From a virus (Duplodnaviria; Heunggongvirae; Uroviricota; Caudoviricetes), in the IMG/VR virus record IMGVR_UViG_2869947659_000001: a stretch of DNA of 22,011 bases; one strand, 5' to 3'. Shown piece after piece: positions 1 through 21,751 of this stretch (position 1 is the first letter of the stretch; each line of letters begins with the position of its first letter). Below the pieces are notes generated by a model. That model searched no databases and was not told the DNA's origin. It was given only the letters and a program-made list of their open reading frames with translations. A program made the translations under genes and the position numbers.

Positions 1-1125
1 ATGTTAACCGATATTCCATACCTGCCGGAAAATTTAAGGAACGGTTATTTTGACATAAATCAGATAAGTCATATCCCGGAAAGCATTCTTAATCTGAGGA
101 ATGAATGTTCAATAGATATTAGTGATAACCCATTGTCATCCCATGCTCTGCAATCCCTGCAAAGATTAACCTCTTCGCCGGACTACCACGGCCCGCAGAT
201 TTACTTCTCCATGAGTGACGGACAACAGAATACACTCCATCGCCCCCTGGCTGATGCCGTGACAGCATGGTTCCCGGAAAACAAACAATCTGATGTATCA
301 CAGATATGGCATGCTTTTGAACATGAAGAGCACGCCAACACCTTTTCCGCGTTCCTTGACCGCCTTTCCGATACCGTCTCTGCACGCAATACCTCCGGAT
401 TCCGTGAACAGGTCGCTGCATGGCTGGAAAAACTCAGTGCCTCTGCGGAGCTTCGACAGCAGTCTTTCGCTGTTGCTGCTGATGCCACTGAGAGCTGTGA
501 GGACCGTGTCGCGCTCACATGGAACAATCTCCGGAAAACCCTCCTGGTCCATCAGGCATCAGAAGGCCTTTTCGATAATGATACCGGCGCTCTGCTCTCC
601 CTGGGCAGGGAAATGTTCCGCCTCGAAATTCTGGAGGACATTGCCCGGGATAAAGTCAGAACTCTCCATTTTGTGGATGAGATAGAAGTCTACCTGGCCT
701 TCCAGACCATGCTCGCAGAGAAACTTCAGCTCTCCACTGCCGTGAAGGAAATGCGTTTCTATGGCGTGTCGGGAGTGACAGCAAATGACCTCCGCACTGC
801 CGAAGCCATGGTCAGAAGCCGTGAAGAGAATGAATTTAAGGACTGGTTCTCCCTCTGGGGACCATGGCATGCTGTACTGAAGCGTACGGAAGCTGACCGC
901 TGGGCGCTGGCAGAAGAGCAGAAATATGAGATGCTGGAGAATGAGTACCCTCAGAGGGTCGCTGACCGGCTGAAAGCATCAGGTCTGAGCGGTGATGCGG
1001 ATGCGGAGAGGGAAGCCGGTGCACAGGTGATGCGTGAGACTGAACAGCAGATTTACCGTCAGCTGACTGACGAGGTACTGGCCCTGCGATTGTCTGAAAA
1101 CGGCTCACAACTGCACCATTCATAA
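1..1125 (+). CDS. ipaH: IpaH-family type III secreted E3 ubiquitin ligase, C-terminal part (last LRR repeats plus NEL domain); 5' end lies outside the window
   Basis: Frame open from base 1 to TAA at 1123-1125. Translation carries the NEL catalytic motif ...ATESCEDRVALTWNNL... (Cys codon TGT at 496-498) and other conserved NEL segments (FLDRLSDT, GREMFRLEILEDIARDKVRTL, DEIEVYLAFQ, EMRFYGVSGVT). The ATG at 1-3 is probably an internal Met codon. Which ipaH paralogue cannot be decided from the conserved C-terminus alone. Confidence 0.85.
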   Translation: MLTDIPYLPENLRNGYFDINQISHIPESILNLRNECSIDISDNPLSSHALQSLQRLTSSPDYHGPQIYFSMSDGQQNTLHRPLADAVTAWFPENKQSDVSQIWHAFEHEEHANTFSAFLDRLSDTVSARNTSGFREQVAAWLEKLSASAELRQQSFAVAADATESCEDRVALTWNNLRKTLLVHQASEGLFDNDTGALLSLGREMFRLEILEDIARDKVRTLHFVDEIEVYLAFQTMLAEKLQLSTAVKEMRFYGVSGVTANDLRTAEAMVRSREENEFKDWFSLWGPWHAVLKRTEADRWALAEEQKYEMLENEYPQRVADRLKASGLSGDADAEREAGAQVMRETEQQIYRQLTDEVLALRLSENGSQLHHS

Positions 1126-1146
1126 TCACATCGCATAAACCACAGA

Positions 1147-1188
1147 CCGGACTGACTCCGGAAAAACAGAGGCCCGCCCCCGGGCCTC
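1147..1188 (-). terminator. Intrinsic terminator-like hairpins in the convergent tfa/ipaH intergenic region
   Basis: Hairpin GAGGCCCG-CCCC-CGGGCCTC at 1169-1188 is followed on the minus strand by a U5 tract (A-run 1162-1166 on plus), then a second hairpin CCGGA-CTGAC-TCCGG at 1147-1161. It lies downstream of the tfa stop (1305-1307). On the plus strand, downstream of ipaH, it has no U tract. Confidence 0.5.
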
Positions 1189-1304
1189 CCCGGATTCATC
1201 CGTTTCCCTGTTCAGCCTGACAGCACGCCCCCGCGGCCGGATGACAGACTCCGCTTCGGTAAGCAAAGCGGTCTTCTGTGATTCCGCCAGTTGCGGCTTA
1301 TTCA

Positions 1305-1869
1305 TTACTCAACGTCAAACGCCCGAATTGAAGCCAAATCATCCAGACCGCTCAGCTCCTCTTTCATTTCACGCTGACGGCGATAAATCTCATCGTTGCG
1401 ATCGACCTGCGCCTGCACCATTGCTGCCGCCAGTTCTTCCAGTTCCGGCATCGACAGTTTCACCTGCTGATTATCGGCATCGCTCCACGCCATATGTGTT
1501 TGTGCTGTGACAGATTTTGCCAGCATGACTACCGGGGACAGGCGGCCCAGTGAGTCGGGACCAGCATTCCAGATACGACCGTTCCATTCAAACGTGAACG
1601 GCTTCGCCTCCTGTTCTGCGCGCCATGCTTCAATTTCCTGACGTCTGGCCTCTCTGGCCGCTTCCAGCATTTCTGGTGTCACAGTGAATGGGGCTATCTC
1701 ACCCCATTTGCCGCTTTGCAGTTCCTGCCAGATTTGCTGACCCGTCGGAGCGACATCATCAGCGGTGGCTGTGTAGGGGACTGCCTGGTCCCTGTCGTCA
1801 AAAAAAAACGTCACAGTCTACTGCGCCACTTTCGGTATAACGGGGATTAATGATTTTTTTAATTTCCAC
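1305..1869 (-). pseudogene. tfa: Tail fibre assembly protein Tfa, reading frame broken at an A9/T9 homopolymer
   Basis: Main ORF 1305-1814 (169 aa in the track, GTG start, no usable RBS). An upstream 23-codon ORF starts at GTG 1867-1869 with SD GAGGA 7 nt upstream, directly after the stf stop, and ends at TGA 1798-1800 inside the A9 run (1800-1808). Removing one A fuses the two into a single Tfa of about 187 aa. Confidence 0.6.
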
Positions 1870-1879
1870 GGTGCATTCC

Positions 1880-3295
1880 TCACGATGTGCGAATAAAAAG
1901 CCCGGGCATTGCGCCAGAGACATGTGCATCCGGCCCCCCGGACAGGGCGCAATATGACCCCGGTAATGAATGCTCTGAACATCCCGTAATGAAAAATTGT
2001 GGGGATGCTATATACGTTCCGGTGGGAGTACTGGGCACTGAAATCCCCACCGGTCCCAGTCGTGAGCCTCTGTATGACTGCCCCCTGACAAGTCTGATGA
2101 CTTTATCACCGTCAGCTTCTCCCTGGTACGCAGCAATAATCAGCCCGCCAATGTCAGGGTCTCCCCATCTGTTGCGGACAGAGCTCGCCACGATTCTGTA
2201 AATAATATCTTCTGTGGTTATATTTATTTTCACCCAGTCAGTCAGTCTGGATATGGGCCAGTAGCAGTAGCGGGTGTGATAAATGGGGCCGTTAATGCCG
2301 TAAAAAGTAAGGGATTTGGCTCTGTACCGCGGTTCTGTTGTCTCAGGGCGTGCATCAGTCCACCGGATGCTGAGCACCCCTTCAAACCGTGTGTCGGGTA
2401 TGATGATGTCGTAGGGGCCAGCAACGGAATATTCACCTGGCAGCGCATTCCTTACCCAGGCCAGGAAATCACTCTTAGTGTCAAAACGGATAACATCTTC
2501 AGGCAGAAAAGCACACCCAAAGCCGAATGCGCCGGGTATCGCCAGACGGCCTTTTGTCCGGTCGTAAATGTCGCTCTGTGCTTCCATCGTGGCCGCACTT
2601 TTCAGCCCCAGATTATCCCGGGACTTCTGTTGTGCCTTTTCGCCTGCTGCTGCGATTTCTGACAGATGGTTAGCCATTTTCAGAGTGCCGGTCAGCGCAG
2701 CATCAATGTCATTTTTGGCCTGTTCTGCTGCGCGGGCATAACCTGCGGCATCCTGTGCGCTCTGTCCGGCTGCGGCTGCATTTGCTCCTGTGCTTGTCAC
2801 ATCTTCCGCAGTGGCCTTTCTGTCCTCAGCTGTGACGGTTGCATCCTGTCGGGCTTTCTCCGCAAAACGTTGTGCATCATCACGGGCCGTTGCGGCTGCC
2901 GCCACATCCTGCGCCGTCTGCTGTGCGTTTCCGGCTGCAGCCCCGGCACTCTGCTGCGCCTGCGCCACCATTTCCTCAAAGCGCTTCATCACCTCCGGAC
3001 GTAAATCACCATCCTTTGGTGCATTCAGAAACGCGTTCAGTGTCCCCGGTGCATCAGTCGGTGCCACATCAATATCCCCGACACGGGTTGGCTGCCAGCC
3101 GTTACAGTGAAGCGCAACCTCGTAATACCCCGGCTCAGCCTCAATCACATAAGCACCGTTATTGTCCGTCACGCAAGTGGCAACAACGTGTGCCACAACG
3201 GTCGGACTGGTTCTTCTGGCCCGCAGTTCAATCGCACAATTTACGACAGGTTTACCCGCCCCATCTTTCAGTACACCTGAAATCTTTACTGCCAT
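1880..3295 (-). CDS. stf: Side tail fibre protein Stf (471 aa)
   Basis: N-terminus MAVKISGVLKDGAGKPV... matches the lambda Stf N-terminus, followed by an Ala/Gln-rich central region. ATG at 3293-3295 is preceded by GGGGTGAAT. The track ORF begins at an upstream ATG (3337) that lies inside the lom terminator hairpin and adds 14 non-homologous residues. Confidence 0.85.
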   Translation of the reverse strand: MAVKISGVLKDGAGKPVVNCAIELRARRTSPTVVAHVVATCVTDNNGAYVIEAEPGYYEVALHCNGWQPTRVGDIDVAPTDAPGTLNAFLNAPKDGDLRPEVMKRFEEMVAQAQQSAGAAAGNAQQTAQDVAAAATARDDAQRFAEKARQDATVTAEDRKATAEDVTSTGANAAAAGQSAQDAAGYARAAEQAKNDIDAALTGTLKMANHLSEIAAAGEKAQQKSRDNLGLKSAATMEAQSDIYDRTKGRLAIPGAFGFGCAFLPEDVIRFDTKSDFLAWVRNALPGEYSVAGPYDIIIPDTRFEGVLSIRWTDARPETTEPRYRAKSLTFYGINGPIYHTRYCYWPISRLTDWVKINITTEDIIYRIVASSVRNRWGDPDIGGLIIAAYQGEADGDKVIRLVRGQSYRGSRLGPVGISVPSTPTGTYIASPQFFITGCSEHSLPGSYCALSGGPDAHVSGAMPGLFIRTS

Positions 3296-3306
3296 ATTCA
3301 CCCCAC

Positions 3307-3332
3307 AAAAAGCCCGCCTGAACCAGCGGGCT
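3307..3332 (-). terminator. Intrinsic terminator downstream of lom
   Basis: Stem AGCCCGC (3311-3317) / GCGGGCT (3326-3332) with an 8-nt loop, followed on the minus strand by a U-tract (A-run 3307-3311 on plus). Sits between the lom stop (3359) and the stf start (3295). Confidence 0.55.
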
Positions 3333-3358
3333 GTCATAACACTGTGTTACCTGGCTAA

Positions 3359-3958: not shown

Positions 3959-3982
3959 AATTACCTCTCGCTTTTCTGCAAT

Positions 3983-9551: not shown

Positions 9552-9880
9552 CAGTTCACCACCTGTTCAAAATCGGCCGTTACAGTCACCCATAACGCCC
9601 CCACGCTTGCCGACCATTTACGACAAACCACCCTGATCGGTTTCCAGTCATAAGGTGGTGTCCACTGAAATGCGCGGACGCCACCGTGCCGTTCCAGAAA
9701 GGCTTTTAAAGGTGGGTGTTCACCTTTACGAACACGTATCGTCACGCTGTAAGTCGACAGCAGATTATTCAGTCCCGCCGGGCGACGCTGTTCATAACCA
9801 TCACCCAGCTTCACTGCCACCACTTTTGGCTCTGATACCACATTCATATCCGGGCGCACCTTCCAGCGAAACGTCTCCAT
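9551..9880 (-). CDS. M: Minor tail protein M (109 aa)
   Basis: METFRWKVRPDMNVVSEPKVVAVKLGDGYEQRRPAGLNNLL... matches recalled lambda gpM in length and sequence. Confidence 0.95.
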   Translation of the reverse strand: METFRWKVRPDMNVVSEPKVVAVKLGDGYEQRRPAGLNNLLSTYSVTIRVRKGEHPPLKAFLERHGGVRAFQWTPPYDWKPIRVVCRKWSASVGALWVTVTADFEQVVN

Positions 9881-11034
9881 TACCGGTATGCTCCACTTAA
9901 CCGGCCACCATCACGGGCCTGCTGTTGCATAAAGTCCGCGGCCGCTTTTTTCCCGAGGTCATAAACCACCTTCAGTGCTGCCGGACCTATCTGCCCGTTC
10001 GTGCCGTCGTTATTGATCCCGATGTTGTACTGCGGGGCAAACATCACCATGCCTGAACCACCAGTATCCGCCACAACCCCCAGCTTACCATCAGCACCGC
10101 GACGCAGTGGCAGAATGGCTTCAGGTCCCGCTTCCCCCATCACACCCGCGCCTTTTGCAAAAGCAAAAAACGTCGGACGGTTAACCACCGTGCCACTGTA
10201 GCGACTCAAATCAGCAGACTGGTAAACACCGCCATCAGCATTAGTCGTGAAGCCGAATAAAGAGCCGACGCCCTTTACCGCCTGCATCATGGCCATCTGT
10301 GCCATAATTCTGGCCATATCTGACAACAGGGAAGAGGTGAAGGATTTAAAATTCAGCTTACCGGTGGTACAGAATGTCGCCAGTGCATTACCGGCACTGC
10401 TGAATGCCACTGTAAACATCTGTTCTGCCGTTCCCACCGCATTATCCGCATCCGCCGTAAAATTCTGAAACGCCCGCATGGCACCGTTTTTCCAGTCGCC
10501 CTGCGCCACTTCCAGTTCCTGCCAGTAGCGTTTGTTTTCATTCAGTTGTCGCTTCAGGCTCCCCTTCAGCACCTCCTCAGCCCTCCGGTAGTCCTCCGTC
10601 CCGTAAGTGCCTTTCTGGCGACTGTCATTCTCAAGCTGTTGCAACTGTTGCCGGTATTCCTGCCGGATGCGCAACTGTGCCTGGTAGCGCTGCCGCTGCT
10701 TATCCCCCATACCTGCAGTGGCAATATCCAGATTGTGCTGCTCACGCAGTGCACGTTCTTTGTCTGCCAGCTGGCTGGTCAGCTGAACCGTTTTTTTTCT
10801 CAGGTCGTTAAGCGCTGTCTGTTTCTGCAGCTCCTGCTGTTTCACATCCAGCAGCGTCAGCGCCTGAATCAGCTCATTCTTACGGGCCAGCACACTCTTT
10901 TCATCTGCCGTCAGCTTTTTCCCGTCCAGGTCGCTGATGCGCTGCTGCAGGGCCAGAAGCTGTTTATGCGCTTCAGTCATCCTTTCAGTGGCAATGCCTG
11001 CTGACTGTCTGGCAGCAGCAATCTGCCCTTCCAC
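9880..11034 (-). pseudogene. H: Tape measure protein H, C-terminal fragment (384 codons), separated from its 5' part by IS600::IS629
   Basis: C-terminus ...NNDGTNGQIGPAALKVVYDLGKKAAADFMQQQARDGGRLSGAYR matches the recalled lambda H C-terminus. The frame is open up to the IS600 end at 11035; the track 'start' at 11034 is an internal GTG Val codon. Confidence 0.85.
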
Positions 11035-11241: not shown

Positions 11242-11559
11242 ATGACTAAAAATACTCGTTTTTCCCCCGAAGTCCGTCAGAGGGCGATTCGTATGGTTCT
11301 GGAAAGTCAGGGCGAATATGACTCACAGTGGGCGGCAATTTGTTCCATTGCCCCAAAGATTGGCTGTACACCGGAGACTCTGCGTGTCTGGGTACGCCAG
11401 CATGAGCGGGATACCGGAGGCGGTGATGGCGGGCTCACCACCGCTGAACGTCAGCGTCTGAAAGAGCTGGAACGTGAAAATCGTGAACTGCGCCGCAGTA
11501 ACGATATCCTTCGCCAGGCTTCCGCTTATTTTGCGAAGGCGGAGTTCGACCGCCAGTGA
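11242..11559 (+). CDS. IS629 OrfA (105 aa, HTH/leucine-zipper transposase N-terminal protein)
   Basis: [105 protein letters not shown] matches recalled IS629 OrfA. Confidence 0.9.
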
Positions 11560-12446
11560 TGCCACTGCTGGATAAGCTGCGTAAGCTGTACGGGGTCGGA
11601 CCGGTATGCAGTGAACTACATATTGCCCCGTCAACGTATTACCACTGTCAGCAACAGCGACATCATCCTGATAAACGCAGTGCCCGTGCGCAGCGCGATG
11701 ACTGGCTGAAGAAAGAGATACTGCGCGTATACGATGGGAATCATCAGGTATACGGTGTGCGTAAAGTCTGGCGTCAGTTGTTACGGGAAGGCATCAGAGT
11801 GGCCAGATGCACTGTGGCACGTCTCATGGCGGTTATGGGACTTGCCGGTGTTCTCCGGGGTAAAAAGGTCCGTACGACCATCAGCCGGAAAACCGTTGCC
11901 GCAGGCGACCGCGTAAACCGTCAGTTCGTGGCAGAACGACCTGACCAGCTGTGGGTGGCTGATTTTACTTACGTCAGCACATGGCAGGGCTTCGTCTATG
12001 TGGCGTTCATTATTGATGTGTTTGCCGGATACATCGTGGGGTGGCGGGTCTCATCGTCCATGGAAACGACATTCGTGCTGGATGCTCTGGAGCAGGCGTT
12101 ATGGGCCCGTCGACCGTCCGGCACGGTCCATCACAGTGATAAAGGTTCTCAGTATGTATCGCTGGCCTACACACAGCGGCTTAAGGAAGCCGGATTACTG
12201 GCATCAACAGGAAGTACAGGCGACTCGTATGACAACGCGATGGCGGAGAGCATCAATGGTCTTTACAAAGCGGAGGTAATACACCGTAAGAGCTGGAAAA
12301 ACCGTGCAGAAGTGGAACTGGCCACACTCACGTGGGTGGACTGGTATAATAATCGACGATTGCTGGAAAGGCAGGGCCACATCCCTCCGGCAGAAGCAGA
12401 AAAAGCTTATTATGCTTCCATCGGAAACGATGATCTGGCAGCCTGA
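11556..12446 (+). CDS. IS629 OrfB (296 aa, DDE transposase catalytic domain), in the -1 frame relative to OrfA
   Basis: DDE motif context ([25 protein letters not shown]). ATGA overlap with the orfA stop. Confidence 0.9.
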
Positions 12447-12748: not shown

Positions 12749-13567
12749 ATGTGTCAGGTATTTGGTGTATCCAGGAGCGGTTATTACAACTGGGTACAGC
12801 ATGAACCCTCAGACAGAAAACAAAGTGATGAGCGGCTAAAACTGGAGATTAAGGTGGCACATATCCGCACTCGCGAAACATATGGAACCCGGCGGCTCCA
12901 GACGGAGCTGGCAGAGAATGGCATCATCGTTGGTCGTGACCGACTGGCACGTCTTCGTAAGGAGCTAAGGCTACGCTGTAAGCAGAAACGCAAGTTCAGA
13001 GCGACTACGAACCCGAACCACAATCTGCCAGTTGCGCCAAATCTGCTGAACCAGACGTTCGCTCCTACAGCACCAAATCAGGTCTGGGTGGCGGACCTGA
13101 CGTATGTTGCCACACAGGAGGGATGGTTGTACCTCGCTGGCATCAAAGATGTTTATACGTGCGAAATTGTCGGCTACGCCATGGGAGAGCGCATGACAAA
13201 AGAGCTGACAGGTAAAGCCCTGTTTATGGCGCTCAGGAGCCAGCGCCCACCTGCCGGGCTAATCCACCACTCTGATCGAGGTTCACAGTACTGCGCATAC
13301 GATTACCGGGTCATACAGGAGCAGTCTGGTCTGAAAACATCAATGTCGCGTAAAGGTCACTGTTACGACAACGCTCCGATGGAAAGCTTCTGGGGAACGC
13401 TGAAAAATGAGAGCCTGAGCCACTATCGTTTTAATAACCGGGATGAAGCCATCTCAGTAATACGGGAATACATTGAGATTTTCTACAATCGTCAGCGTCG
13501 TCACTCTCGTCTGGGGAATATCTCCCCGGCAGCCTTCAGGGAAAAATATCATCAGATGGCTGCTTAA
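12749..13567 (+). CDS. IS600 OrfB (copy A), DDE transposase catalytic domain (272 aa from first Met; frame open upstream to the frameshift window)
   Basis: Identical protein to the copy at 16367-17185. DDE context WVADLTYV, HHSDRGSQY, YDNAPMES. Confidence 0.85.
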   Translation: MCQVFGVSRSGYYNWVQHEPSDRKQSDERLKLEIKVAHIRTRETYGTRRLQTELAENGIIVGRDRLARLRKELRLRCKQKRKFRATTNPNHNLPVAPNLLNQTFAPTAPNQVWVADLTYVATQEGWLYLAGIKDVYTCEIVGYAMGERMTKELTGKALFMALRSQRPPAGLIHHSDRGSQYCAYDYRVIQEQSGLKTSMSRKGHCYDNAPMESFWGTLKNESLSHYRFNNRDEAISVIREYIEIFYNRQRRHSRLGNISPAAFREKYHQMAA

Positions 13568-13610
13568 AAAAAGAACAAATGGTAGTGTCCGCTATTGCCA
13601 GTACACCTCA

Positions 13611-15374
13611 GACAGCCTGGTCGGCGTACTGCATGGCATTAATACGCGCAATTTCCCGCTGATGTCGTGCAGCTTCCGTTTCATTCATCCGGTTCAGCGC
13701 GGCATTTTCAGCATTCCGGCGTTTCTGTTGCTCCTGGTAATTCCGTTCTGCCTGCGCTTTTGCATCCTGCAAATCCTTCCGGCGTTTTTTCTCCTGAAGA
13801 TCGTTAAGACGCTGCTGATCGTACTCCACCTGTGTGGAGGCGTTTGTCCACGGATATTTTTTCGCGCGCTGAATTTTTTCCTGTAACGCATCAATCTGCG
13901 CATCCAGCGAGTCTTCACGACCAATATTCATGGCCGCATCCCAGAACTGCTTCCACCAGTCAGACAAGGTTTGCAGCGTACTACCCAGCGCATTGAGATT
14001 ATTATCAATATCAGATGTGCGTTTACCGGTTTCCTCTGCCAGCGCAGACATGGCGATCCGGGCCGCATCACTGGACCGCCCCTGCTCCCCAAGGACGCGT
14101 ATCTGCTCAAGCTGAGTGGCAGTCAAAAAATGCAGCGCATTGTCCAGCGCCTTCGCGGCATTTACAGGATCATCCTTCAGCCGCTTAAACTGATTTATGG
14201 TATCGCTGACCGACTGGCCAACCGATCGCTCCATCTGTGCGGCAGCTTTCGCCACCATACCAATATCGTTTCCATGAAATGCCCCACTGCCCACCACCTG
14301 TGCCAGCGCACCGGCTGCCGCATGTTGCGTGATACCATTCCCGGATATGGCCCGGCTGAGTTTCCACAACTGCCCGACAGTGACACCGGCATAATGTCCC
14401 GTCAGCGCCAGCTGATGGTTAAATTCCTCGCCCTCCTTCCGGCCGTCATGCCAGGCTTTACCCAGACCCAGGACCGCCGCGACAAGTCCGCCAATAACGC
14501 CGCCAGTCATCATGCCTTTCGGCGACATCAGTGCGCCTGTCCATCCGGCACGGTTAGCCAGCGTTATCCCGGATCCCCTCAGCGCACCAAAATTGCCGCG
14601 CGCCATCTGACTGATTAACACCCCCAGCTCCCGCCGGGCTGCCGCACTTTTCAGCCCCAGCGAATGTGTGGCTTTTCCTGCCCGCTCCATTTTGCGGATA
14701 TACACTTCTGCAGCACTGCTTACCCCCAGCTGAGCCGCCCTGGCGCGAAGCAACTCAGAAGACGACAGATTCTGGCGGGTTGCCTGCTCTTTAAGCTGGC
14801 GGATAAACGCCGCTTTCTGCCGGGTGGCCTGTTCCTCTGCCTGCGTCAGGGCACGGGTTTTCGCCGTGATCTCCGAAATCAGCGCCAGATAATCCTGCTG
14901 ACCAACCCCGCCACTGTTTCTGGCCTGTCGGATCTGCTGCTGAATACGCTGTAATTCCTGAAGCCCCGCACCGGCCTGTTTCACACTGTCAATCTGGCGA
15001 TAAAAGGCGGCAGCCGCTTTATCCTGCGCCTCCGCCAGTGCCCTGGCCTGCGCCTGTTCCTCGCGCATTTTCTGATTCAGGGCATCCACGCGCAGACGGG
15101 TTTGTTCCACCTCACGGGCCATGCGTTCATGAGCCCGTGCATTCTTCTCCACCGTCTGCGCATGGGCTGATGCTGCTGTTGCAGCCGAAGAAGCCGCATG
15201 CATTGTCTGCCGGGCCGCCTGAGTCTGACGCTCCATAAAACGCTGCATACGGGCAGAAGACCGTTCTGCATCACCGGCTGCACCATTCAGAAGGTTTTTG
15301 ATACGGGGAATTTCATTTTTAAACTCTGCCGCATCAATCCCCAAATCAATGACCAAGTTGGCTATCTGGTCCAT
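13611..15374 (-). pseudogene. H: Tape measure protein H, N-terminal fragment (588 codons)
   Basis: ATG at 15372-15374 with SD GGAGGTG. N-terminus MDQIANLVIDLGIDAAEFKNEIPRIKNLL... resembles the recalled lambda H N-terminus. The frame runs into the IS600 end and stops at its terminal TGA (13608-13610). Joining to 9880-11034 after removing the IS and one flanking triplet gives an in-frame H of about 971 aa. Confidence 0.85.
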
Positions 15375-15689
15375 AACGCACACCTCCGGAAATACCTTCC
15401 CCAAGATGCATCAGTTCTTCGTCCGTTCGCTCCGGTATCCCGTTCTCTTCCGGTAAAAGGCTGAAATCAGCCACCGCAGCATCACTGCTGCCGGACACCA
15501 TTCTCACGATCAATGCCTTCAGCGAGGCAAACTGCGCATCCATCCACACATCACTGAAGCTCTGCATCCGGAAATAATCGCCCCCTCACCAAGCTCAGTG
15601 GCCGACATTTCCGACAGCATCCGCCGCCAGTCTGCCCGCCGGAACTCCCGGGCAAGCCGCATGACAAACTGCATTTCCCGCGTCAGGAC
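15346..15689 (-). pseudogene. T: T segment of the G-T tail assembly chaperone, apparently frame-broken
   Basis: Candidate shift site CCG GAA AAG at the end of G (15689-15697). The -1 frame is open from there to TGA at 15519-15521. A different frame is open from 15585 to stop 15346-15348, ending 29 nt inside H as T does relative to H in lambda. One extra C in the C5 run 15581-15585 would join them into a continuous T domain of about 114 codons. Confidence 0.4.
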
Positions 15690-16366: not shown

Positions 16367-17185
16367 TTAAGCAGCCATCTGATGATATTTTTCCCTGAAG
16401 GCTGCCGGGGAGATATTCCCCAGACGAGAGTGACGACGCTGACGATTGTAGAAAATCTCAATGTATTCCCGTATTACTGAGATGGCTTCATCCCGGTTAT
16501 TAAAACGATAGTGGCTCAGGCTCTCATTTTTCAGCGTTCCCCAGAAGCTTTCCATCGGAGCGTTGTCGTAACAGTGACCTTTACGCGACATTGATGTTTT
16601 CAGACCAGACTGCTCCTGTATGACCCGGTAATCGTATGCGCAGTACTGTGAACCTCGATCAGAGTGGTGGATTAGCCCGGCAGGTGGGCGCTGGCTCCTG
16701 AGCGCCATAAACAGGGCTTTACCTGTCAGCTCTTTTGTCATGCGCTCTCCCATGGCGTAGCCGACAATTTCGCACGTATAAACATCTTTGATGCCAGCGA
16801 GGTACAACCATCCCTCCTGTGTGGCAACATACGTCAGGTCCGCCACCCAGACCTGATTTGGTGCTGTAGGAGCGAACGTCTGGTTCAGCAGATTTGGCGC
16901 AACTGGCAGATTGTGGTTCGGGTTCGTAGTCGCTCTGAACTTGCGTTTCTGCTTACAGCGTAGCCTTAGCTCCTTACGAAGACGTGCCAGTCGGTCACGA
17001 CCAACGATGATGCCATTCTCTGCCAGCTCCGTCTGGAGCCGCCGGGTTCCATATGTTTCGCGAGTGCGGATATGTGCCACCTTAATCTCCAGTTTTAGCC
17101 GCTCATCACTTTGTTTTCTGTCTGAGGGTTCATGCTGTACCCAGTTGTAATAACCGCTCCTGGATACACCAAATACCTGACACAT
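16367..17185 (-). CDS. IS600 OrfB (copy B), DDE transposase catalytic domain (272 aa)
   Basis: Identical to the copy A OrfB. In this copy the orfB frame is +1, not -1, relative to orfA. Confidence 0.85.
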   Translation of the reverse strand: MCQVFGVSRSGYYNWVQHEPSDRKQSDERLKLEIKVAHIRTRETYGTRRLQTELAENGIIVGRDRLARLRKELRLRCKQKRKFRATTNPNHNLPVAPNLLNQTFAPTAPNQVWVADLTYVATQEGWLYLAGIKDVYTCEIVGYAMGERMTKELTGKALFMALRSQRPPAGLIHHSDRGSQYCAYDYRVIQEQSGLKTSMSRKGHCYDNAPMESFWGTLKNESLSHYRFNNRDEAISVIREYIEIFYNRQRRHSRLGNISPAAFREKYHQMAA

Positions 17186-17522: not shown

Positions 17523-17586
17523 TATTAGCTCCTTCTGATGCCATTCTATTTCAGGAAGGAGTGTCCGTTAAACTCAGGCTACCTCA

Positions 17587-18134
17587 AAGGTCAGTGTGGT
17601 GGTTGCTCCCGCTTTGACACTGACAGATGCCGGTGCCACCGTCAGTCCGGTAACACCCACGGTTTCAGCGCCCTCCTCTGCCAGATACGGACGCCCCACA
17701 CCGCTGATTTTTACAGTACGGGTCATCACCTCTTTTGAGGTAATGGTTTTACCCAGTGAACTCAGCCAGCCACGGAAAACATCAACCGTACCGTTGGGGT
17801 ATTTGATACGAAACGCGCAGACTTCACCGGAATCGAACAACTGAACCAGTTTTTTCTGCCCGCTGTCACCCGGACGCCAGGCCAGCGTCGCCAAAGTATC
17901 ACCGACGGATTTCTGCCCCTGGGTTGTCGTTTTCCAGTCTGCATCTTCATCATCGAGATAAGTGTCATCTTCTGCATCAGCGGTCATTTCGCCAAGTTGC
18001 AGATCCTTCACCATCGCAAGACGCAGCCAGTCAGTGTCCGACAAAGGGTTCGCAAACGCATCGCCCTTGCCGGTGTACATCCAGAACGTCGTTCCCGCAC
18101 CTTTCGTCTTTGCCAGTGGATTTGGTGTGGTCAT
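17587..18134 (-). pseudogene. V: Major tail protein V, N-terminal fragment
   Basis: ATG 18132-18134 with [46 protein letters not shown]... matches the recalled lambda gpV N-terminus. The frame runs 12 nt into IS600 to TGA 17574-17576. The track ORF starts at an upstream GTG. Confidence 0.85.
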
Positions 18135-18144
18135 TGCCACCTCC

Positions 18145-18546
18145 TTAATTCGTGTACGTGATCTGGTACGTGATTTCCGCCATCGCCCAGGTGGCCATCT
18201 CATTATCACGTTGATAGTTAAAACCGAGTGGGATCATGGTGTCGATGAGTCCGGAAAGCACCGGAATATCCTTCATGGCCGGAAATATGGTGTTCTCCAT
18301 CCACGTATCCAGCTCAGAATCCGGCGCCTGTGCACGGACGAAAACGGCAATATGCAGAACAGCCTGCCAGTCGTCCTCATCCGTCATTTTTCCGGTGTAC
18401 TGCGCATCACTCAGCCACACCGCCACGGCGGGCAGTTCCTGCGCATCAATAAATGCCGGAAGCCCGTCAAAAAGCACGACATTCCCCCCGCATTCGCCCT
18501 TCAGGCTTGCCAGTACTGCCTGGCGGATTTGTGTGTGCCTGTTCAT
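18145..18546 (-). CDS. U: Tail terminator / minor tail protein U (133 aa)
   Basis: [18 protein letters not shown]...[15 protein letters not shown]...[21 protein letters not shown]... resembles recalled lambda gpU. ATGA overlap with the Z stop. Confidence 0.9.
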
Positions 18547-19361: not shown

Positions 19362-19781
19362 ATGGAACAGAAAGCATTATCTGCAGAACCCCGCAGATCA
19401 TTTTCAAATGAGTTTAAACTTCAAATGGTTAAACTGGCTTCACAACCAGGAGCCTCTGTTGCCCGTATTGCCCGGGAACACGATATCAATGATAACCTGC
19501 TGTTCAAATGGCTCAGGCTCTGGCAGAACGAAGGGCGCATATCGCGGCGTCTTCCGGTAACAACCTCTTCTGACACTGGCGTTGAATTATTACCTGTGGA
19601 GATAACGCCGGATGAGCCGAAAGAACCTGTGGCTGCTCTTACTCCGTCTTTATCTACTCAGACTACAGTTAGTGCCAGCTCCTGCAAGGTGGAGTTCCGT
19701 CACGGTAACATGACGCTGGAAAATCCTTCACCAGAGCTGCTCACAGTGTTGATCCGTGAACTGACCGGGAGGGGACGATGA
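19362..19781 (+). CDS. IS66-family Orf1 (TnpA-like accessory protein, 139 aa)
   Basis: First of three co-oriented ORFs inside the inverted repeats. N-terminal HTH-like region (FSNEFKLQMVKLASQPGASVARIAREHDINDNLLFKWL). Confidence 0.85.
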   Translation: MEQKALSAEPRRSFSNEFKLQMVKLASQPGASVARIAREHDINDNLLFKWLRLWQNEGRISRRLPVTTSSDTGVELLPVEITPDEPKEPVAALTPSLSTQTTVSASSCKVEFRHGNMTLENPSPELLTVLIRELTGRGR

Positions 19782-20128
19782 TCTCACTCCCGTCAGGCAC
19801 CCGCATCTGGCTCGTTGCTGGGATAACCGATATGCGTAAGTCTTTCAACGGGCTGGGTGAACAGGTACAGCATGTGCTGAATGATAATCCCTTCTCCGGT
19901 CACCTGTTCATCTTCCGTGGCCGACGGGGTGACATGATTAAAATCCTGTGGGCTGATGCTGATGGTCTGTGCCTGTTCACCAGACGCCTGGAGGAAGGCC
20001 AGTTTATCTGGCCTGCTGTGCGTGACGGCAAGGTATCCATTACCCGCTCGCAACTGGCAATGCACCTCGATAAGCTGGACTGGCGTCAGCCAAAAACATC
20101 CCGCCTTAATGCACTGACAATGTTGTAA
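19778..20128 (+). CDS. IS66-family Orf2 (TnpB-like, 116 aa)
   Basis: ATGA overlap with orf1. Conserved IS66 Orf2 pattern (IWLVAGITDMRKSFNGL...HLFIFRGRRGDMIKILWADADGLCLF). Confidence 0.85.
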   Translation: MISLPSGTRIWLVAGITDMRKSFNGLGEQVQHVLNDNPFSGHLFIFRGRRGDMIKILWADADGLCLFTRRLEEGQFIWPAVRDGKVSITRSQLAMHLDKLDWRQPKTSRLNALTML

Positions 20129-20158
20129 AAATGTCATGGCCGGATTATAAAAACGGCC

Positions 20159-21751
20159 ATGAATCAAAAATACCTCATTCGCATTGCAGAACTGGAATGC
20201 CAGCTCCGTCAGAAAGACCAGCAACTGAGTCTGGTTGAAGAGACGGAGGCCTTCCTGCGCTCTGCACTGGCCCGCGCCGAAGAAAAGATCGAAGAAGATG
20301 AACGGGAAATAGAACATCTGCGGGCTCAGATAGAAAAACTGCGCCGGATGCTGTTCGGTACCCGTTCTGAAAAACTGCGTCGTGAAGTTGAACAGGCTGA
20401 GGCCCTGCTGAAACAACGCGAACAGGACAGTGATCGTTACAGTGGGCGGGAAGACGATCCGCAGGTTCCCCGCCAGTTGCGACAGTCTCGTCATCGTCGC
20501 CCGTTACCGGAGCATCTGCCCCGCGAAATAAATCGCCTGGAGCCAGAAGAAAGCTGTTGCCCGGAGTGTGGCGGTGAGCTGGATTATCTGGGGGAAGTCA
20601 GCGCAGAACAACTGGAACTGGTGAGCAGCGCTCTGAAAGTGATCCGCACAGAACGGGTAAAAAAAGCCTGTACAAAATGTGACTGCATCGTTGAAGCACC
20701 GGCACTATCCCGTCCGATAGAGCGTGGTATCGCGGGCCCGGGGTTACTTGCCCGCGTGTTAACGGGAAAATACTGCGAACACCTGCCACTGTATCGTCAG
20801 AGTGAAATTTTTGCCCGTCAGGGTGTCGAACTGAGCCGTGCATTACTCTCCAACTGGGTTGACGCGTGCTGCCAGTTAATGACGCCGCTGAATGATGCTC
20901 TGTACCGTTATGTAATGAACAGCCGCAAAGTTCACACTGATGACACACCAGTAAAAGTGCTGGCACCGGGCAGGAAGAAGGCGAAAACAGGATATATCTG
21001 GACGTATGTCCGGGATGACAGGAATGCCGGTTCGCCAGAGCCTCCGGCGGTCTGGTTCGCCTACTCACCGGACCATCAGGGTAAACATCCGGAGCAGCAC
21101 CTTAGTCCCTTCCGGGGTATCCTGCAGGCAGATGCGTTTAATGGTTACGATCGGCTGTTCAGTGCCGAACGAGAAGGCGGCGCGTTGACGGAAGCAGGAT
21201 GCTGGGCTCATGCGCGGCGCAAAGTCCACGATGTATATATCAGTACCAAAAGCGCGACAGCGGAAGAAGCCCTGAAACTAATCGGTGAGCTGTACGCCAT
21301 CGAGCACGAAATACGCGGGTTGCCGGTGTCTGAACGCCTGGCGGTCAGGCAAATGCAGAGTAAACCGCTACTGACTTCCCTGTATAAGCTGATGCAGGAG
21401 AAAGAACACACGTTATCGAAAAAATGCCGTCTGAGAGATGCGTTCCGGTATATCAGGAAGCACTGGGTTGCGTTGTGCAACTTCAGTGATGATGGTCTGG
21501 CTGAGGCGGATAATAATGCCGCGGAAAGAGCGCTTCGTGCAGTCTGTCTCGGAAAGAAAAACTTTATGTTCTTCGGCAGCGATCACGGTGGAGAGCGTGG
21601 TGCGCTACTGTACGGGCTGATCGGCACCTGCCGACTGAACGGTATCGATCCGGAAGCGTATCTGCGCTATATCCTGAGCGTACTGCCGGAATGGCCTTCC
21701 AACCGTGTTGACGAACTCCTGCTATGGAACGTAGCACTCACCAATAAATAA
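20159..21751 (+). CDS. IS66-family transposase Orf3 (TnpC, 530 aa)
   Basis: N-terminal coiled-coil / leucine-zipper region, Cys cluster CPECGGEL...CTKCDC (zinc-finger-like) and C-terminal DDE-type region. Stop TAA 21749-21751 lies just inside the right terminal repeat. Confidence 0.9.
   Translation: MNQKYLIRIAELECQLRQKDQQLSLVEETEAFLRSALARAEEKIEEDEREIEHLRAQIEKLRRMLFGTRSEKLRREVEQAEALLKQREQDSDRYSGREDDPQVPRQLRQSRHRRPLPEHLPREINRLEPEESCCPECGGELDYLGEVSAEQLELVSSALKVIRTERVKKACTKCDCIVEAPALSRPIERGIAGPGLLARVLTGKYCEHLPLYRQSEIFARQGVELSRALLSNWVDACCQLMTPLNDALYRYVMNSRKVHTDDTPVKVLAPGRKKAKTGYIWTYVRDDRNAGSPEPPAVWFAYSPDHQGKHPEQHLSPFRGILQADAFNGYDRLFSAEREGGALTEAGCWAHARRKVHDVYISTKSATAEEALKLIGELYAIEHEIRGLPVSERLAVRQMQSKPLLTSLYKLMQEKEHTLSKKCRLRDAFRYIRKHWVALCNFSDDGLAEADNNAAERALRAVCLGKKNFMFFGSDHGGERGALLYGLIGTCRLNGIDPEAYLRYILSVLPEWPSNRVDELLLWNVALTNK

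Follow-up and report, generated by a model that had tools for sequence, protein, structure and literature searches.

Probable T8-to-T9 replication slippage splits a decaying DUF4376 gene in an ipaH-carrying Shigella prophage remnant

In the 22,011-nucleotide stretch of Caudoviricetes DNA analysed here (IMGVR_UViG_2869947659_000001, referred to as the window), the gene behind the side tail fibre gene stf is broken by a homopolymer shortly after its start, which raises the question of whether the break reflects genuine decay, a slippage-prone contingency tract that controls a fibre chaperone or a homopolymer sequencing error. A sequence-only reading of the window had placed a 23-codon open reading frame (ORF) behind a GAGGA Shine-Dalgarno (SD) sequence and had it end at a TGA within an A9 run; every coordinate of this description was confirmed (Table 1). 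The gene starts 10 nt past the stf stop codon and, read on the minus strand, its premature TGA consists of the last T of the T9 run (1808-1800) plus GA. No other homopolymer of nine or more bases is found in the 22-kb window. Since 12 of 100 shuffled windows also contained at least one run of nine or more bases, the T9 run by itself is statistically unremarkable, and its significance comes from the comparison with intact T8 relatives. The sole other 8-base homopolymer in the window (10791-10798, T8 on the plus strand and A8 on the coding strand) lies within a tape-measure gene fragment at 9880-11034.

Table 1. Coordinates of the split DUF4376 gene and its neighbours in the window.
Feature	Position	Strand	Remarks
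stf stop codon TGA	1882-1880	-	read directly
Shine-Dalgarno sequence GAGGA	1877..1881	-	overlaps stf stop; 7-nt spacer to GTG; read directly
GTG start codon of DUF4376 gene	1867..1869	-	homologues start at equivalent position, M-E/Q-I-K
First fragment, 23 codons plus premature TGA	1798..1869	-	product VEIKKIINPRYTESGAVDCDVFF
Homopolymer, A9 on plus strand, T9 on coding strand	1800..1808		exactly nine bases; T8 + 1
Premature TGA from extra T	1798..1800	-	mRNA context UUU UGA C
Remainder, 164 codons plus TAA, +1 frame	1305..1799	-	holds whole DUF4376 domain
stf, side tail fibre gene (phage_tail_N)	1880..3337	-	Pfam PF08400, E 2e-48, from residue 15
59-codon ORF, weak Caudo_TAP fragment hit	1126..1305	-	E 1.3e-3, profile 66-98/131
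Convergent ipaH remnant, NEL E3-ligase half only	1..1125	+	Pfam NEL, E 5e-77

Beyond the run, the gene continues in the +1 frame, which is open from a GTG at 1814 to the TAA at 1307-1305 and encodes 169 aa. The length of this remainder, previously given as 166 codons, is corrected to 164 codons past the run (1799-1308), or 169 from GTG 1814. No SD-like sequence is present upstream of GTG 1814 on the minus strand, in agreement with the earlier remark that the remainder has no credible ribosome-binding site. When one T was deleted in silico, an uninterrupted product of 187 aa was obtained, and orthologues with T8 in enteroinvasive E. coli (EIEC) are intact; the expectation that a run of eight would give one continuous protein of about 187 aa was thus borne out. 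One frameshifted DUF4376 pseudogene comprises both ORFs, the 169-aa one and the 23-codon one (for which upstream ATGs give calls of 41 or 43 aa); several public records wrongly list the fragments as two proteins, one "hypothetical" and one "tail fiber assembly".

The joined protein matches Pfam PF14301 (DUF4376) over residues 70-175 with a score of 61.1 bits (cut-off 25). It also matches PHROG 1141 ("tail fiber protein") over residues 1-187, corresponding to profile positions 4-190 of 194, with an E value of 2e-88. No other Pfam family, including Caudo_TAP (PF02413, lambda Tfa), matched the 187-aa product at E ≤ 0.01, an NCBIfam profile search of it gave no match, and no usable solved structure was detectable by sequence when either the joined protein or a six-sequence profile was the query. 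The name tfa used in the sequence-only reading is imprecise: by its DUF4376 match and missing Caudo_TAP match, the gene does not belong with the lambda-type Tfa. The order of a fibre gene followed by a DUF4376 gene is shared with the Stx phage phiP27 (L56-L57), with Rac-SA53 (tail3-tail4) and with an E. coli SE11 prophage. Proteins of the DUF4376 type whose genes follow a fibre gene have been described as fibre chaperones; examples are gp27 of Alteromonas phage V22 (PMC7289586), gp9 of phage A5 (PMC10579305) and a protein from Campylobacter CJIE1 prophages, where the gene lies downstream of that for the H-fibre (PMC7882524). A need for the co-expressed DUF4376 protein in the folding or function of its cognate fibre is known only for the CJIE1 protein and V22 gp27 (PMC7289586, PMC7882524). 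The split gene resembles these three genes in its C-terminal DUF4376 domain and in its position directly downstream of a fibre gene, and differs from them in that the DUF4376 domain is the only part shared. Based on gene position and this published work, the fibre-chaperone label appears reasonable for the split gene.

Comparison with intact relatives indicates where the gene begins. EIEC orthologues with more than 99% DNA identity carry T8 and an annotated intact coding sequence, and the N-terminal 23 residues are likewise present in the more distant phiP27 L57 and Rac-SA53 tail4 proteins (75-77% protein identity). In an end-to-end alignment of the joined protein with five intact homologues (71-91% identity), 11 of the first 23 positions are invariant (I3, K4, I6, R10, Y11, E13, A16, D18, C19, V21 and F23). 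Together with the match of PHROG 1141 across residues 1-187, this alignment places homology on both sides of the junction. The opposite outcome, in which intact homologues would begin at the counterpart of 1814 with no N-terminal extension, was not encountered among them: all begin at the equivalent of GTG 1869. In addition, the GAGGA is kept ahead of the start codon where a fibre gene immediately precedes, as in the EIEC, L004, phiP27 and Rac-SA53 homologues (L numbers denote copies of the locus). No close relative (>90% identity) of the split-gene lineage was found in the phage collection. In PGAP/RefSeq annotations, the start of the intact orthologues is placed at an upstream ATG (equivalent to 1929-1927), which gives a 207-aa protein and a 50-nt overlap with stf. 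GTG 1869 has its counterpart in the start codons of the homologues from phiP27 and Rac-SA53, both with GAGGA ahead, and from SE11; the 207-aa model probably carries 20 residues too many.

These alignments also bear on the idea that the two-piece gene works as it stands. In that case, re-initiation at GTG 1814-1812 after termination at TGA 1800-1798 would yield a 169-aa protein with a complete DUF4376 domain. Re-initiation near a stop codon is established in bacteria, the GTG lies 12 nt upstream of the stop, and the 169-aa ORF is intact on every T9 haplotype examined, although a recent mutation would leave the downstream frame open just as well. Against this idea, GTG 1814 has no SD sequence ahead of it and the 169-aa product would be missing 18 N-terminal residues, including 8 of the invariant positions, from the part of such chaperones in which published work has placed fibre binding. 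A functional two-piece gene is consequently regarded as very unlikely.

The codons of the tract itself suggest how the run arose. In distant homologues, the equivalent positions read GTG CTG TTT, GTT TGG TTT or GTT TTA TTT, which encode Val-Leu/Trp-Phe without a homopolymer. Among the homologues compared, GTT TTT TTT occurs only in the Shigella/EIEC lineage. Because of this restriction, the T8 run is best read as recent, a side effect of a Leu/Trp-to-Phe change, rather than as a conserved element, with T9 derived from T8. In the protein collection, the exact T8 product of the window haplotype is present in 735 contigs (946 blocks), and T8 with otherwise identical flanks is found in L001-L003 and L038-L047.

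To count the alleles, an unbiased DNA search with a pattern that accepts any tract length was used, and 83 copies were recovered. T8 accounts for 67 of these (81%), followed by T7 (11), T9 (3), T6 (1) and T10 (1). An excess of T9 over T7 and T10, which could have pointed to selection for a leaky allele, had been considered; the census reversed it, with T9 in 3 of the 83 copies and T7 in 11. The apparent excess arose because loci had been retrieved through allele-specific protein look-ups. Exact look-ups of the predicted T7, T10 and T11 products gave no match, which is uninformative because gene callers pass over such ORFs in the overlap with stf.

Public data at this tract are error-prone, and the ninth base could be a consensus over-call in a strain that truly carries T8 and an intact gene. 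Of the 12 copies with T6 or T7, five also have a shortened A7 run (window 1854-1860, 45 nt upstream of the tract), which reads A6 or A5; these five copies are the IMG/VR contigs L070, L077, L081, L101 and L111, and such paired under-calls point to homopolymer sequencing errors rather than alleles. Three T7 loci come from source assemblies in which ipaH is split at differing, scattered places, and several of the long-contig T9 records appear, from their accession series and protein accession prefixes, to belong to long-read or 454-era projects. For the window locus, however, the evidence runs the other way. The window is 100% identical to CP026766.1 (L008) over 4814 nt, and an independent draft of the same locus, LPTL01000157.1 (L012), has T9 as well, with 9 SNPs relative to the window and zero gaps over 3721 nt. 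Two Logan read-set assemblies match at 100% identity over 686 nt with T9 included. The T9-specific 41-aa ORF is found in 119 contigs and 192 blocks from NCBI, ENA and Logan, and 97 of these blocks consist solely of contigs shorter than 2 kb. A systematic over-call is also at odds with the T8 tracts read at other copies (L015, L018, L023 and L024) in the same accession series as the T9 assemblies, and with CP178302.1, in which one genome holds six T8 copies and one T9 copy. The T9 at the window locus is very probably real, and an artefactual ninth base is improbable. More generally, the tract-length differences seen in public data at this position mix true alleles with homopolymer errors, and read-level support is needed before phase variation is claimed.

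When the copies are sorted by locus, tract length is constant within each group of orthologous loci. At the ipaH-587 locus, T9 is present in four assemblies (L006, L007, L009 and L010), and at the window locus in two (L008 and L012). Ten full-length EIEC hits span 750/751 bases; T8 was read directly in three of these (L001-L003) and inferred from match length in the others. At one orthologous locus, two strains differ in the tract, L006 having T9 and L043 having T8, with 99.72% identity over 5625 nt. Constancy within locus groups combined with differences between strains is the pattern that inherited mutations, rather than rapid switching, would give. At least six haplotypes of the downstream sequence, with 0-30 differences per 498 nt, carry T9, and the 169-aa ORF is open on all of those examined. 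T9 also occurs with both the ATC and the ACC variant of codon 6, the latter of which is found with T8 too. This distribution calls either for slippage that has recurred at a hot spot or for short conversion events between the many paralogous prophage remnants. In individual Shigella-type genomes, the stf-DUF4376-ipaH module is present in four to seven copies at different loci and with different ipaH paralogues, as in L120-L132 (CP182556.1, CP178302.1) and L040-L043 (CP162080.1). The module appears to behave as a dispersed repeat, for which gene conversion between copies is plausible. Many database proteins are marked "partial" because the dispersed repeat breaks short-read assemblies at this point.

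Elsewhere in Shigella, copies of the same gene have been lost in other ways. Codon 2 is changed from GAA to TAA in three copies (L015, L018 and L024), a C4 run is shortened to C3 in L023, and the gene is truncated by an insertion sequence (IS) in L016, L017 and L021. In L049, which represents the same ydfI-IS1-ipaH locus in another strain, a deletion of ~244 bp (3976-3980; equivalent to window ~1840-2085) removes the 3′ end of stf and the first ~30 codons of the DUF4376 gene, T tract included, and creates a 594-aa stf::DUF4376 fusion ORF. The junction of this fusion, at which …FQCPVL is followed by PYTATADD…, is also present in a UniRef entry. Such a range of independent lesions is what relaxed selection would produce.

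The surroundings of the gene show a similar state. On the minus strand, the tail genes M, L, I and J are followed by lom, stf and the split gene, and the convergent ipaH comes next. The tape-measure gene is in two pieces (9880-11034 and 13608-15404, minus strand) that are parted by IS3-family insertions. Three IS3-family ORFs (11556-12446, 12749-13567 and 16367-17185) are present in the window, including two identical 272-aa transposase ORFs in opposite orientation, and an IS66-family element of three ORFs occupies its right end (19362-21751). Ahead of this element, the phage genes end with the tail tube gene (17574-18209), and no head genes are found within the 22-kb window. The ipaH gene is itself frameshifted: a 374-aa NEL half is in frame, whereas the LRR half lies upstream in another frame (CP026766.1, L008 4815-5500). 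The break is located near ...PEIP, before PGIKSIN, and a second strain (L049) has the same 374-aa remnant at this locus. Based on this gene content, the element is interpreted as a defective lambdoid prophage remnant of Shigella that is retained around the effector gene ipaH, the cargo gene that marks this prophage type. Of the three explanations offered at the outset, genuine decay is supported by the independent lesions in sister copies and by the remnant state of the prophage. The contingency-tract and sequencing-error options are disfavoured, the former by locus-constant alleles in a defective prophage and the latter by the recurrence of T9 in independent assemblies.

Two further observations concern the genes on either side of the split gene. 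Orthologues of stf are annotated as 470 aa, whereas the mechanically called ORF has 485 aa from ATG 3337. A terminator-like hairpin at 3311-3332, after lom, falls inside the first 14 codons of this longer ORF, and the true stf start is probably ATG 3295-3293. On the other side, the ATG of the 59-codon ORF overlaps the DUF4376 stop codon (TAATG), and the ORF contains a strong terminator-like hairpin (1168-1189) followed by a T-run. Its match to Caudo_TAP is sub-threshold at 19.4 bits (cut-off 22.1). This ORF is probably the scar of a lambda-type tfa, and 1126-1305 now looks like a shared terminator region for the tail genes and the convergent ipaH. Public annotations label the ORF as a protein of 59 or 30 aa.

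Taken together, these findings are likely to reflect replication slippage from T8 to T9 in the decaying DUF4376 gene of an ipaH-carrying Shigella prophage remnant, with no regulatory device involved. Indel rates climb steeply with homopolymer length, as documented in E. coli mutation-accumulation studies. In the proposed sequence of events, strand slippage during DNA replication on the GTT TTT TTT run would have added one T. The extra T brings a TGA into frame after codon 23 and leaves 164 codons, including the whole DUF4376 domain, in the +1 frame with no ribosome-binding site, so that standard decoding would yield only a 23-residue peptide. The T9 allele would then persist as a neutral loss, one step of ongoing decay; neutrality is expected because the prophage makes no particles, given a tape-measure gene split by IS and no head genes in the window. 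Some leakiness is conceivable: exactly the wild-type 187-aa protein would come from a minority of transcripts short of one U, or from a +1 ribosomal shift at UUU UGA C. T9 may for this reason be a leaky allele instead of a complete null.

Directly before the T9 run, a weak 5-bp hairpin (CGCAG-TAGA-CTGTG, 1812-1825, minus strand) was flagged as terminator-like in a consensus scan. The hairpin (1825-1812) and the run were considered as a functional attenuator, which was rejected: the five-pair stem includes one G-T pair, and the run encodes V-F-F in every close relative. A longer U tract behind the hairpin could slightly raise pausing or termination; the hairpin is probably meaningless.

The leakiness described above leads to the remaining alternative, in which the run is a functional slippery tract that switches or throttles the chaperone by phase variation, by transcriptional slippage of the mxiE type or by a prfB-like +1 shift. 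Nine A or T residues are the length at which slippage of bacterial RNA polymerase becomes appreciable (PMC1088944), and Shigella employs such runs in mxiE and spa33. The UUU UGA C sequence forms a shifty stop with the fourth-position C found in prfB, and a +1 shift there would give the wild-type protein. In addition, lengths from T6 to T10 are present in databases and T9 is found on several haplotypes. These points are countered by the conservation pattern: the interrupted layout is not conserved, with T8 in 81% of copies and no homopolymer in distant homologues, and the allele is constant in orthologous-locus groups across strains. The upstream sequence GACUGUGACGUUUUUU holds no SD-like stimulator. 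Furthermore, sister copies have been destroyed by nonsense mutations, deletions and IS elements, so the gene is not under selection, and the prophage is defective. A functional tract is, like re-initiation, highly improbable. A milder form, in which low-level production of the wild-type chaperone makes the allele tolerated or favoured in Shigella ipaH prophages, would explain both the presence of T9 on at least six haplotypes and the open downstream frame; this form is more doubtful still. Slippage, a +1 shift or re-initiation is in no case backed by conservation, and each is of little consequence in a dead prophage. Replication slippage in a gene already under decay remains the preferred reading.

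The split gene can be compared with several known systems. In prfB (RF2), +1 frameshifting uses the shifty stop CUU UGA C together with an SD-like stimulator ~3 nt upstream (PMC13245932). The split gene has a similar UUU UGA C at 1803-1797 (minus strand), at which the P-site tRNA would re-pair perfectly in the +1 frame (UUU to UUU). Unlike prfB, it has no SD-like stimulator, no UAU spacer, no conservation and no autoregulatory logic: the upstream sequence contains no AGGGGG- or GGAGG-like element, and homologues read through in frame where prfB has a conserved in-frame stop. Phase-variable contingency loci of Campylobacter, Neisseria and Haemophilus share with the split gene a coding homopolymer whose length sets the frame and the occurrence of several lengths in public assemblies. 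The tract examined here differs in being short, lineage-specific and stable within locus groups, and in that its length variation is partly error. Whereas contingency loci are otherwise kept by selection, this gene exists in nonsense, deletion, IS and fusion alleles within a defective prophage.

Within the same organism group, mxiE and spa33 of Shigella flexneri contain nine T or A residues in a coding region, through which two overlapping frames are joined in the RNA. The resemblance to mxiE stops at the T9 run and the organism. The mxiE activator depends on its two-ORF layout, which is normal and conserved. Here, in contrast, T9 is a minority allele (3/83) and the in-frame T8 is ancestral, with neither the run nor the two-ORF layout conserved among homologues (T8 in 67/83 copies; no run in distant homologues). 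The split gene comes nearest to the "pseudo pseudogenes" in which a run of eight has been lengthened by mutation to nine and become prone to slippage (Baranov, Hammer, Zhou, Gesteland & Atkins 2005, Genome Biol 6:R25; PMC1088944). As in that class, an A/T run of 8 nt has become 9 at the frame break, orthologues elsewhere keep an uninterrupted ORF, and a fraction of the mRNA could regain the frame through slippage of RNA polymerase. The differences are that the frame would be restored by one U lost (or two gained) and that the host is a dead prophage, in which rescue may be irrelevant. The gene is absent from the supplementary table of that study, where the one S. flexneri 301 gene is a different one (PMC1088944). 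If the allele were leaky, it would represent a phage-derived 8-to-9 "pseudo pseudogene" in an organism where mxiE and spa33 already rely on T9/A9 slippage, and its biological consequence would still be small given the defective prophage. The split gene is best described as an ordinary 8-to-9 homopolymer frameshift pseudogene.
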